In this document: piece after piece, positions 3,438 through 7,051 of the stretch
Numbering within the stretch: the first letter of the stretch is position 1
Layout of the letters: every line of letters begins with the position of its first letter
NCBI GenBank assembly: GCA_046597055.1
Contig: JBKJLC010000071.1
Span: forward strand, 1 to 22,115
Length of the DNA stretch: 22,115 nucleotides
Direction of reading: 5' to 3'
From: Kofleriaceae bacterium
GTDB taxonomy: Bacteria > Myxococcota_A > Polyangia > Haliangiales > Haliangiaceae
Position numbers and translations under genes: made by a program
Notes under the pieces: generated by a model
Told to the model about the DNA's origin: nothing
Database searches by the model: none
The model's input: only the letters and a program-made list of their open reading frames with translations

Positions 3438-4379
3438 ATGTCCGACGTCGATCGGCTCGTCGATCTGATCACCGCCCGGGTGCGCGAGCGGATGGCGAGC
3501 CCCAGCCCTGCCAGCCCCGACCTGTCCACCCTCGCCCCGCGCGACCGCGGCGCGTGCGTCGACGACAGCGCGCCCGGGGCCGACTGTGCGGGCTGCGGTG
3601 CCTGCGTGGTGCGCCGGCCGTGGTCGGTGCGCGCGCTCGAGGGCTCGGGTGCGATGCGGGTCGGGGCGCCGGCCGGCATCGGCGCGGTCCCGGCCGATCT
3701 CGGCAAGCTGATCGACCACACCCTCCTGCGCAACGACGCGACCAAGGACGAGGTCGTCGCCCTGTGCGACGAGGCCCGGAAGCACCGGTTCGCGTCGGTG
3801 TGCGTGAACACGACCTGGGTGCCGCTGTGCAAGGCGCTCCTGGCCGGCACCGACGTCATGGTGTGCGCGGTGGTCGGCTTCCCGCTCGGCGCGATGACGC
3901 CGACCGCGAAGGCCTACGAGGCCCGGGACGCGGTCCGCCAGGGCGCGCGCGAGATCGACATGGTGATCAACCTCGGCGCGCTCAAGTCCAAGGACTACGA
4001 GACCGTGTTCGAGGACATCTGCCGGGTGGTCAAGGCGTCGGCGCCGGCCGGGGTCAAGGTGATCCTCGAGACCGGCTCGCTCACGCACGACGAGAAGGTG
4101 ATCGGCTGCACGCTGTCGAAGCTGGCCGGCGCCGCGTTCGTGAAGACCTCGACCGGGTTCGCCAAGGGTGGCGCCACCGTCGAGGACGTCGCGCTGATGC
4201 GCTCGATCGTCGGCAACGACGTCGGCGTCAAGGCGTCGGGCGGCGTGCGCACCGCCGAGGACGTGGTGCGGATGGCGCAGGCCGGCGCCAACCGGATCGG
4301 CGCGTCGGCGTCGGTCGCGATCGTCACCGGGTCTACTGGCTCCGGCGACGGCAAGGCCGCCGCCACGAAGGGTTACTGA
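3438..4379 (+). CDS. deoC: Deoxyribose-phosphate aldolase with ~85-aa N-terminal extension (amphipathic helix plus C-x9-CxxCxxC)
   Basis: IDHTLL, VGFPLG, EIDMVIN, KVILETG, FVKTSTG (Schiff-base Lys), GVKASGG, RIGAS. Start placed at ATG 3438 rather than GTG 3420. Confidence 0.96.
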
Positions 4380-4382
4380 TCC

Positions 4383-5723
4383 ATGGCGATGACACCTTCC
4401 GGACGGCTGCCGGTCGAGCTGATCCGCGCCAAGCGCGACGGCGGTGCCCTGTCGGCGGGCGAGCTGCGCGGCTTCATCGCCGGGGTGACCGACGGGTCGA
4501 TCCCCGACTACCAGGTCGCCGCCATGCTGATGGCGATCTACTTCCGCGGCATGACCGACGACGAGCTGGCGGCGTGGGCCGACGCGATGGTGCGCTCGGG
4601 CGACGTCCTCGACCTGTCGGCGATCCCGCGGCCCAAGATCGACAAGCACTCGACCGGCGGCGTCGGCGACAAGATCTCGATCCCGCTGGCGCCCGCGGTG
4701 GCCGCGTGCGGCGTGGCGGTGCCGATGGTGTCGGGGCGCGGGCTCGGCCACACCGGCGGCACCCTCGACAAGCTCGAGTCGATCCCGGGCTTCCGGGTCG
4801 ACCTGTCGGTCGCGCGGTTCGAGCAGCTGGTCGGCGAGCTCGGCACCTGTCTGATCGGCCAGACCGAGCGGGTCGCCCCGGCCGACAAGCGGCTGTACGC
4901 GCTGCGCGACGTCACCGGCACCGTCGAGTCGATCCCGCTGATCGCCTCGTCGATCATGTCGAAGAAGCTCGCCGAGGGCATCGACGGCCTGGTCCTCGAC
5001 TGCAAGGTCGGCGAGGGCGCGTTCATGAAAGACCTCGACCGCGCCCGCGCGCTGTGCGCGGCGATCCGCGCGATCGGCGTCGCCGCCGGCAAGCGGATCA
5101 CGTGCGTGCTCACCGACATGGACGCGCCGATCGGACGCGCGGTCGGCAACGCGCTCGAGATCGCCGAGTCGATCGCGGTGCTGAACGGCGGGGGCCCCGC
5201 CGACACCCGCGAGCTGACCGTGGTGCTCGGCGGCGAGATGCTGTACCTGGGCGGCGTGGCCAGCTCGGCCGAGGACGGTCAGGCCCGGATCGCGCGCGCG
5301 CTCGACGACGGCTCGGCGCTCGCGGTGTTCCGGAAGGTGGTCGCGGCCCAGGGCGGCGATCCCGAGGTGTGCGATCGGCCCGACGAGATCCTGCCGCGCG
5401 CCGCCCACCGGCTGTCGGTGCTGAGCGATCGTGCCGCGGTGATCAACGCGATCGACGCCGAGGCCATCGGGATGGCCGCGCTGCTGCTCGGCGCCGGCCG
5501 GCGCACCAAGGAAGAGGCGATCGATCCAGCGGCCGGCGTCATGATCGAACGCCGGGTCGGCGACCCGGTGACCGCCGGCGAGCCGCTCGCGATCGTGCAC
5601 ACCAACCTCACCGCCGATGATCCGCGCGTGCGCGAGGCGTGCGTGCGCATCCACGAGGCGTTCCGCCTGGCGGCCGACGGGCCCGCGCCCGCCACCACCC
5701 GCATCCTCGAGACCCTGCGCTAG
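4383..5723 (+). CDS. pdp: Thymidine/pyrimidine-nucleoside phosphorylase
   Basis: KRDG, DYQVAAMLMAI, DKHSTGGVGDK, SGRGLGHTGGTLDKLESIPG, LYALRDVTGTV, SSIMSKK, GAGR. Begins 3 nt after the deoC stop. Confidence 0.96.
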   Translation: MAMTPSGRLPVELIRAKRDGGALSAGELRGFIAGVTDGSIPDYQVAAMLMAIYFRGMTDDELAAWADAMVRSGDVLDLSAIPRPKIDKHSTGGVGDKISIPLAPAVAACGVAVPMVSGRGLGHTGGTLDKLESIPGFRVDLSVARFEQLVGELGTCLIGQTERVAPADKRLYALRDVTGTVESIPLIASSIMSKKLAEGIDGLVLDCKVGEGAFMKDLDRARALCAAIRAIGVAAGKRITCVLTDMDAPIGRAVGNALEIAESIAVLNGGGPADTRELTVVLGGEMLYLGGVASSAEDGQARIARALDDGSALAVFRKVVAAQGGDPEVCDRPDEILPRAAHRLSVLSDRAAVINAIDAEAIGMAALLLGAGRRTKEEAIDPAAGVMIERRVGDPVTAGEPLAIVHTNLTADDPRVREACVRIHEAFRLAADGPAPATTRILETLR

Positions 5724-5744
5724 CGCGCAGCACCAGCGAGCCCC

Positions 5745-6632
5745 ATGAGCCAGCCTACCCGCGACGTCCACGGCGACCTTCACGGCCGCGTCCAGGCCTC
5801 GGTCAACGCCATCCGCAGCAAGATCGGGGCGCGCGCGCCGACGGTCGGCCTGATCCTCGGCTCCGGCCTCGGCGGCTTCGCCGATCGGCTCGAGGACGCG
5901 GTCGGCCTCGACTACGGCGAGCTGCCCGGGTTCCCGGTGTCGCGGGTCGAGGGCCACGCCGGCCGGCTGGTGATCGGCCAGCGCGGCGGCGCCACCTGCG
6001 TCGCGATGAAGGGCCGCGTGCATCTCTACGAGGGCTGGACCGCGGCCGACGTCGCGTTCCCGGCCCGGGTGCTGGTCGCGCTCGGCGCCAAGATCGTGAT
6101 CGTCACCAACGCCGCCGGCGGCCTGCAGCCGGCGTGGCCGCCGGGCACGCTGATGCTGATCCGCGATCACATCGACATGCTGCGCGATCACCCGCTGCGC
6201 GGCCGCAACGACGACCGGCTGGGCCCGCGGTTCCCCGACATGACCCACACCTACGCCGCCGAGCTGCGGACGCTGGTGCGATCGGTCGCCGCCCGCCAGG
6301 GCATCGCGCTCGAGGAGGGCGTGTACGTCGCGATGCCGGGCCCCTGCTACGAGACGCCGGCCGAGGTGAAGATGCTGCAGGTGATCGGCGCCGACGCCAC
6401 CGGCATGTCGACCGTGCCCGAGGTGGTGGCCGCGCGGCACATGGGCGCGCGGGTGATCGGCATCTCGTGCATCACCAACAAGGCGGCCGGCATCACGGGC
6501 GAGCCGCTGTCGCACGCCGAGGTCACCGCCACCGCCACCCGCGTGCGCGCGACGTTCGAGGGCCTGCTCGACGGCATCCTGGCTGCGCTGGCCGCCGGCG
6601 GCGAGCTGACCCCGGCGGGAGCCCCGGCGTGA
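5745..6632 (+). CDS. punA: Purine-nucleoside phosphorylase (trimeric, inosine/guanosine type)
   Basis: ILGSGLG, VEGHAG, GRVHLYEG, TNAAGG, GPRFPDM, GPCYETPAE, GMSTVPE, ITNKAAG (Asn typical of 6-oxopurine specificity). Confidence 0.95.
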   Translation: MSQPTRDVHGDLHGRVQASVNAIRSKIGARAPTVGLILGSGLGGFADRLEDAVGLDYGELPGFPVSRVEGHAGRLVIGQRGGATCVAMKGRVHLYEGWTAADVAFPARVLVALGAKIVIVTNAAGGLQPAWPPGTLMLIRDHIDMLRDHPLRGRNDDRLGPRFPDMTHTYAAELRTLVRSVAARQGIALEEGVYVAMPGPCYETPAEVKMLQVIGADATGMSTVPEVVAARHMGARVIGISCITNKAAGITGEPLSHAEVTATATRVRATFEGLLDGILAALAAGGELTPAGAPA

Positions 6633-7051
6633 CCGCGCCGTCGGACGCCGAGCTCGAGGCCGCCGCGCGCGGGGCCCAGCGCCGCGCCTACGCGCCCTAC
6701 TCGCAGTTCCAGGTCGGCGCGGCGCTGGTGGTCGCGTCGGGCGAGGTGTTCACCGGCGCCAACGTCGAGAACGCGTCGTACGGCCTGTGCGTGTGCGCCG
6801 AGCGCAACGCGGTGATCGCCGCGGCGCTCGCCGGCCACCGCGACGTGCGCGCGATCTGCGTGGTGACGAAGATCGCCCCGCCGGCGTCGCCGTGCGGCAT
6901 GTGCCGGCAGACCCTGCTCGAGTTCGCCCACGATCCCGCGACCACCCGCGTGATCTCGCTGGGGCCCGACGGCGCCCGCGCCGAGTGGACCCTGGCCGAG
7001 CTGATCCCGCACGGCTTCACCGGCGGCCAGCTGCCGCCGCCGGTCCGGTAG
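6629..7051 (+). CDS. cdd: Cytidine deaminase
   Basis: AYAPYSQFQVGAAL, GANVENASYGLCVCAERNA, PCGMCRQ zinc motifs. GTG start overlaps the PNP TGA (GTGA). Seen as the C-terminal part of track ORF 5639..7051. Confidence 0.95.
   Translation: MTAPSDAELEAAARGAQRRAYAPYSQFQVGAALVVASGEVFTGANVENASYGLCVCAERNAVIAAALAGHRDVRAICVVTKIAPPASPCGMCRQTLLEFAHDPATTRVISLGPDGARAEWTLAELIPHGFTGGQLPPPVR

Follow-up and report, generated by a model that had tools for sequence, protein, structure and literature searches.

A deoxyribose-5-phosphate aldolase with a three-part N-terminal extension probably links a nucleoside operon to a dispersed microcompartment in a Kofleriaceae bacterium

Why should the deoxyribose-5-phosphate aldolase (DERA, encoded by deoC) at the head of a nucleoside catabolism operon begin 87 residues ahead of its catalytic barrel? 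The case comes from a Kofleriaceae bacterium (GenBank assembly GCA_046597055.1), in whose contig JBKJLC010000071.1 we analyzed positions 1 to 22,115 of the forward strand, a stretch of 22,115 nucleotides called the window hereafter. A first-pass annotation had suggested that the extension carries an encapsulation peptide and that the locus may be a satellite of a bacterial microcompartment (BMC). From the source genome (G000; 94.17% complete, 7.55% contaminated, with the operon on contig C59, that of the window), a set of 251 genomes of its class and published systems we arrive at a reading to which we give a probability of roughly 0.8: the operon would supply both the cytosolic front end and, inside the shell, the committing enzyme of a pathway based on a dispersed microcompartment of the Haliangium type (HO, type I). 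The enzyme families, the operon order, the shell inventory, the co-occurrence and the three-part build of the extension are established directly, and DeoC is probably loaded into the shell via its N-terminal tag. The operon and the parts of its first gene are as follows.

3423..3428, + strand: TATAGT, a -10-like hexamer 9 nt before the deoC start codon, probably a leaderless promoter
3438..4379, + strand: deoC, DERA of 313 amino acids with an 87-residue N-terminal extension (profile match)
3441..3497, + strand: amphipathic helix, residues 2-20, a putative encapsulation peptide (conservation, AlphaFold)
3498..3554, + strand: variable low-confidence linker, residues 21-39 (alignment, AlphaFold)
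3555..3605, + strand: four-cysteine module C40-x9-C50-x2-C53-G-x-C56, a putative metal (Zn or Fe-S) site
3609..3683, + strand: residues 58-82, an internal duplicate of the barrel's last helix-strand unit, residues 270-294 (hhalign)
3699..4325, + strand: DeoC catalytic barrel, residues 88-296 (TIGR00126, E 6.8e-83)
4383..5723, + strand: pdp, pyrimidine-nucleoside/thymidine phosphorylase, no tag seen (NCBIfam cut-off passed)
5745..6632, + strand: punA, purine-nucleoside phosphorylase (NCBIfam cut-off passed)
6629..7051, + strand: cdd, tetrameric cytidine deaminase (NCBIfam cut-off passed)

Much of the first-pass description holds. As it had stated, deoC is tightly coupled to pdp, punA and cdd (a 3-nt gap, a 21-nt gap and a 4-nt overlap, in this order), the aldolase core begins at about residue 88, and the window lacks shell genes, PF00936 and PF03319 being without a match on the whole of contig C59. 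The genome has a single deoC, and the catalytic residues D174, K236 and K265 are invariant. The term satellite has to be given up, since a satellite by definition contains shell genes (PMC8217296, in the part accessible to us).

The shell genes expected elsewhere in the genome are there, as a full HO-type set dispersed over contigs. The profile scan of G000 gave six PF00936 and three PF03319 matches, and the inventory comprises one BMC-H, three BMC-T plus EutL, and three BMC-P.

C293: BMC-T, BMC-H, BMC-P, aldehyde dehydrogenase (AldDH) with an N-terminal helix (NF011927 above cut-off), BMC-T
C129: two BMC-P, then a class II aldolase with a C-terminal helix
C75: a single BMC-T
C150: EutB, EutC and a EutL-like BMC-T
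C259:45061-46926 (L169): acetate kinase fused to a PduL-type PTAC, far from shell genes and with no evident tag

By its gene content, G000 thus holds a dispersed HO (type I) microcompartment: it has the main shell locus with an AldDH bearing an N-terminal tag on C293 and the BMC-P triplet with its satellite of two BMC-P plus a pfam00596-type aldolase on C129. Its 1 H / 3 T / 3 P count equals that of Haliangium ochraceum, as given in the accessible part of PMC4207490. Among the tagged partners that had been predicted, the AldDH bears out the expectation; the two RpiB genes are ordinary, without extension and with their cysteine kept. Measured against a sugar-phosphate-utilization (SPU) BMC, DeoC has the SPU-type N-terminal extension and the catalytic D/K/K; its gene is on C59, apart from AldDH and shell on C293, and the Cys-to-Asp tagged RpiB beside DERA, a feature also absent in SPU5, is missing. 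The operon therefore works like an RpiB-less SPU pathway and, at genome level, is of the HO type; by definition it is neither an SPU nor a satellite locus. Contamination as the origin of the shell genes was rejected, because the seven contigs compared match the genome in GC content (0.724-0.737 against a mean of 0.722) and BMC-P is present in 37 of 39 family relatives. The closest named relatives of G000 are Kofleriaceae and Haliangiales records.

The class offers a wider view of how closely the extension follows the shell. BMC-P was found in 113 of the 251 genomes and a DeoC match in 213; the counts below refer to 150 listed DeoC matches covering 147 genomes, with a further 70 weaker matches unlisted. 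Taking a DeoC alignment that reaches query residue 50 or lower as a proxy for the extension, 97 of the 147 listed genomes have it, 95 of them with BMC-P. Three rows proved spurious, with no real extension on reading: G199 and G016, which lack BMC-P and have stops inside the aligned part, and G162, in which BMC-P is present. With these dropped post hoc, a genuine extended DeoC is accompanied by BMC-P in 94/94 genomes (59 sequences were read), so that the expected co-occurrence is borne out, and the full extension is not found in shell-less genomes among the matches listed. BMC-P also occurs in 6 of the 50 listed genomes whose alignment does not reach that far: G150, whose DeoC has the helix and no cysteines; G097 and G183, where a contig end probably truncates the match; and three members of family f11. 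A further twelve f11 genomes have BMC-P and no DeoC match among those listed. In the family of G000, all 38 sampled BMC-P-positive genomes, G000 included, have an extended DeoC match. Within 3 kb downstream of the extended deoC lies pdp in 65 of the 94 genomes (34/38 in the family); in 22 others the two genes are not linked, and for 7 no pdp is listed.

The two family members without BMC-P are informative. G018 (98% complete) lacks PF00936, PF03319 and AldDH, and its DeoC has lost the whole extension; the kinase-deoC-pdp order is kept and pdp is disrupted. G018 falls inside the order-level clade (Shimodaira-Hasegawa-like approximate likelihood ratio support, SH-aLRT, 95) on a branch of 0.9, compared with 0.06-0.33 for its neighbors; both trees made are quick ones, and 3 of 128 rows are absent from one of them. 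The other, G171, has no close orthologue.

Some features of single genomes and families stand apart from these counts. In G038, deoC (L061:7151-8066) has a frameshift at about residue 240 that breaks it in two, from assembly error or decay, and shell-less G044 has two deoC-deoB-pdp runs, on C13 and C2, from duplication or contamination. Family f11, in which 16 of 42 genomes carry four BMC-P each with no extended DeoC seen, has a different microcompartment type, and many f12 and f28 genomes carry seven BMC-P.

Regarding the extension itself, the amphipathic helix and its hydrophobic positions 4, 7, 8, 11, 15 and 19 are confirmed, and L10 is hydrophobic too. AlphaFold models it over residues 3-20 (predicted local distance difference test, pLDDT, about 80 in the full model and about 94 for the extension alone), and its hydrophobic moment of 0.40 compares with 0.49 for the AldDH tag and 0.38 for the class II aldolase tag of G000. 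A terminal amphipathic helix of about 15-25 amino acids on a poorly conserved linker is the architecture of encapsulation peptides, and across relatives the helix is conserved while the adjoining linker drifts. The start of translation also lies upstream of the helix, which follows directly after the start codon in 30/30 closest relatives; a downstream start at M19 was rejected, as M19 is not conserved. A TANNNT hexamer 4-12 nt upstream of the deoC start occurs in 38 of 46 relatives and in 0 of 230 coding-region control windows, which were not matched to intergenic base composition; a sigma-70 scan at deoC found no -35/-10 pair, and a terminator scan was also empty. These sequences suggest a leaderless deoC transcript that begins at the helix-encoding start. 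A hidden Markov model (HMM) trained on 27 extensions of DERAs from shell loci in other lineages retrieved only the DeoC N-terminus among 93,725 six-frame segments of G000 (E 7.9e-6; next 0.34).

In 80 loci from a genome collection, extended DERAs stand mostly in SPU-type loci. Ten further genomes with an extended DERA, hand-picked from those without a shell gene in the fetched stretch, all carry BMC-P, and in Bacillota loci ordinary DeoCs begin at the barrel. Two loci physically join the nucleoside operon half and the shell half: L122 has deoB-cdd-BMC-P-deoC-pdp in one run, and L093 has BMC-P-BMC-P-tagged aldolase-deoC-one gene-pdp. In the SPU-type loci L066, L067, L068, L069 and L071, about 170-250 extra residues separate tag and cysteine module; these DERAs are probably the flavoprotein-DERA fusion described in the accessible part of PMC12747264, and Pfam did not confirm a flavoprotein domain in them. 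L070 and L072 encode RpiB-DERA fusions that retain helix, cysteines and duplicate as a linker.

How would the operon feed such an enzyme? Phosphorylases yield deoxyribose-1-phosphate and DERA requires the 5-phosphate, so a phosphopentomutase step is needed between them. No match to the usual enzyme, DeoB, turned up in G000 or in 34 of the 39 family members, and in many relatives deoB sits between deoC and pdp. A PGM-family mutase (phosphohexomutase, 579 amino acids) is encoded at G000:C15:44732-46471 (L087); at cut-offs of E 1e-80 for this mutase and 1e-30 for DeoB, its homologues occur in 86 of the 251 genomes, DeoB in 84, and both in none (28.8 expected if independent), a split that recurs within six families. 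From this mutually exclusive distribution the C15 mutase probably replaces DeoB, which makes it a candidate bacterial phosphopentomutase of the phosphohexomutase fold. By its size and motifs, the C15 protein is a putative member of the PGM2 subfamily. Mammalian PGM2, of the same superfamily, is a phosphopentomutase according to the accessible part of PMC9426568.

In the proposed pathway Cdd, Pdp and PunA, identified by profile and presumed cytosolic, would release deoxyribose-1-phosphate in the cytosol, and the C15 mutase would convert it to deoxyribose-5-phosphate in DeoB's stead. This would enter the shell and be cleaved by encapsulated DeoC, and the acetaldehyde would be captured by AldDH and yield acetate plus ATP via AckA-PTAC. 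The idea that the phosphorylases supply DeoC thus survives for the deoxyribose arm, with the mutase step added. Its other half, a supply of ribose phosphate from RNA, falls away because DeoC acts on the deoxyribose arm only. EutBC and the tagged class II aldolase may supply aldehyde as well, so that the shell is best seen as an aldehyde hub that perhaps handles what is left of dead or prey cells; among its feeders DeoC is the most constant. DNA of prey or dead cells as the starting material is a suggestion already published.

Several points weigh against this reading. The 251 genomes are kin, so that co-occurrence overstates independence, and no P value is given. Shell-less G002 and G044 keep deoC-deoB-pdp-nupC-punA together with a short residual N-terminal helix, and shell-less G021 keeps a helix-like remnant; the tree positions of all three are unstable. 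The 7.55% contamination of G000 has to be borne in mind, the NupC transporter was not found in this 94% complete genome, and according to the accessible part of PMC9426568 only eukaryotes have the PGM2 subfamily, or its PGM2L1 member. Home-made tag profiles also failed to single out the DeoC helix: one from 33 AldDH, RpiB and aldolase tags (2 of the 33 segments wrongly picked) placed the G000 AldDH first and the DeoC helix 983rd of 6,532, and an HMM from 11 SPU DERA helices did not have it among its best 15. The assignment as a tag therefore rests on context and on the homology of the whole extension. An ordinary cytosolic operon, whose extension stems from a microcompartment ancestor and now serves stability, oligomerization or metal sensing, would account for G002 and G044 and for the lack of an adjoining RpiB partner or shell gene, and the co-occurrence among related genomes would then be shared ancestry. 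We nevertheless regard it as very unlikely, because the extension is cut or decayed in 4/4 inspected shell-less genomes of these lineages, the helix is conserved although its linker drifts, and the association of extension and shell recurs over many phyla.

A possible, though doubtful, alternative keeps DeoC inside the shell and denies that its first helix is a portable tag: the extension would organize the enzyme core, by self-condensation or by binding to AldDH or other cargo, with no docking to the shell. The poor showing of the helix against tag profiles, the two additional conserved parts of the extension and the insolubility that the SPU6 extension conferred on DERA (PMC11585597) favor this view. 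G150 and several SPU DERAs in shell-bearing genomes, however, lack the cysteines and retain only the helix, or the helix plus the duplicate, which suggests that the helix is the one part that cannot be spared. The shell might also serve mainly ethanolamine, through EutBC, or the substrate of the class II aldolase, with DeoC as a minor passenger; EutB, EutC and EutL on C150 and the tagged aldolase beside two BMC-P genes speak for this. Against it, EutBC occurs in only 4 of 41 HO loci and the tag on about a third of class II aldolases, by the accessible part of PMC8217296, and the extended DeoC accompanies the shell throughout the sampled family, so this explanation seems unlikely. DeoC as encapsulated cargo remains the supported reading, the complete shell set, the state of the shell-less homologues and the start site all agreeing with it.

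Beyond the helix, the extension turned out to be more complex than the Pro/Ser linker first described, which covers residues 21-39 only; residues 40-87 hold the conserved four-cysteine module and a duplicated helix-strand. The extension is thus in three parts: a helix, a C-xn-CxxCGxC module and a copy of the barrel's last helix-strand. The cysteine pattern is present in 57 of 59 extension-bearing class sequences, the remaining two having Glu or Asp at the third place, and in 120/120 top homologues, which were chosen by likeness to residues 1-95. In the 27 shell-locus DERAs of other lineages, four cysteines occur in 13, one to three in 7 and none in 7, with varied spacing; by sequence comparison, module and duplicate are common to many SPU DERAs. 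Aligned with hhalign, residues 58-82 match the barrel's last helix-strand at 94.6% (E 6.9e-8), compared with at most 2.6% for seven other windows. The structure model of the extension alone has short strands at 75-76 and 92-93. Two database proteins, P0127 and P0144, jump from the N-terminal duplicate to later barrel parts, by misassembly or deletion.

In the PDB the module is most similar to DERA C-termini and to ferredoxins, and these matches are all weak (E >=0.027); a fold search of the extension model against the PDB was without a match, and ESM Atlas gave no usable one for residues 36-90. The Fer4 [4Fe-4S] cut-off of Pfam was not reached, with no match for the DeoC extension and 19.3 against 21.1 bits for the best relative; compared with the CxxCxxCxxxCP of Fer4, the module has another residue in place of the CP cysteine and its fourth cysteine further upstream. 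A profile of the module gave 112 matches, in 76 of which the DERA start motif is next. Occurrence on non-DERA proteins was rejected by eye: the other 36 are either pieces or chimeras of this N-terminal region, or eukaryotic proteins, zinc-finger-like or with repeats, in which only the cysteines match. The module likely binds a metal, and an Fe-S cluster is a tentative option. A bolder and improbable idea is a metal-gated switch rather than a tag alone, in which metal or redox state would govern how the chain folds, whether subunits swap strands and hence core assembly or loading; the cysteines would bind [4Fe-4S] or zinc directly before the spare helix-strand, and this copy would take over the pairing with strand 1 from the native one. 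Module and duplicate may explain why such DERAs are difficult to express and may be a sign that cargo is under metal or redox control.

Other genes of the window surround the operon. Directly upstream of deoC, a gene at 1793-3388 encodes a Ser/Thr kinase with a C-terminal FGE-sulfatase-like piece; a homologue is upstream of deoC in many relatives, reaching other families, a possible regulatory link. Further downstream are a ferritin-like protein below the Pfam cut-off (9087-9983) and, at 11335-12899, an xdhC-like gene (Pfam) followed by a probable nucleotidyltransferase gene (by eye); the xdhC-like region is possibly tied to purine breakdown through xanthine dehydrogenase maturation.

How does this locus relate to known systems? 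Operons of the deo/dra type for nucleoside catabolism comprise deoC-deoB-pdp-punA-cdd or, as in Bacillus, dra-nupC-pdp. The present operon has the same gene set and tight coupling, and those of relatives keep deoB and sometimes nupC; it differs in its extended DeoC, and neither deoB nor nupC was found in G000. A link to encapsulins was rejected, as the DeoC-encapsulin systems in the accessible part of PMC8346489 are archaeal Family 4.

A distant tagged DeoC as HO cargo is not a new idea. Sutter et al. 2021 (PMC8217296, accessible in part, as for all statements on it here) noted that a pfam01791 enzyme encoded elsewhere in some HO genomes bears an extension resembling an encapsulation peptide, and that this enzyme could be encapsulated and act in nucleic-acid catabolism. 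Their HO BMC and that of G000 are alike in this distant DeoC, the main shell locus with AldDH, the satellite of two BMC-P and class II aldolase, the separate BMC-T and the EUT module. The proposal is one sentence, and the phosphorylase operon, the cysteine module, the duplicate, the replacement of DeoB and the loss in shell-less genomes were not found in that part of the text. Structural and engineering work on microcompartments has the HO shell as its main model, and the same source calls the native function of this shell enigmatic. A one-line published guess thus becomes a near-obligate association with a natural case of loss, and a full nucleoside-to-acetate pathway can be named. No published account of the cysteine module or of the operon link was found in a search that left most subscription papers outside, and the cysteine module with its duplicated helix-strand is the novelty that stands open.

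The closest enzyme is the SPU BMC DERA of Dwyer et al. 2024 (PMC11585597), whose activity was demonstrated. Enzyme, catalytic residues and the predicted DERA-to-AldDH chemistry are the same and the N-terminal extension is homologous; there it is described as a helix plus two strands, and the main text is silent on cysteines, zinc, metal and duplication. Unlike in an SPU BMC, the DERA of G000 is encoded away from the shell locus, as part of a nucleoside operon and without a tagged RpiB partner. The closest pathway is the SPU microcompartment of Hodarchaeales with its flavoprotein-DERA fusion (PMC12747264, accessible in part), in which deletion of such peptides abolished recruitment to shells. 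That system is archaeal and forms one complete operon including MNdh and PTAC; it resembles the Kofleriaceae one in that a cytosolic nucleoside phosphorylase feeds a shelled DERA and AldDH, and a myxococcotal source is given for it.

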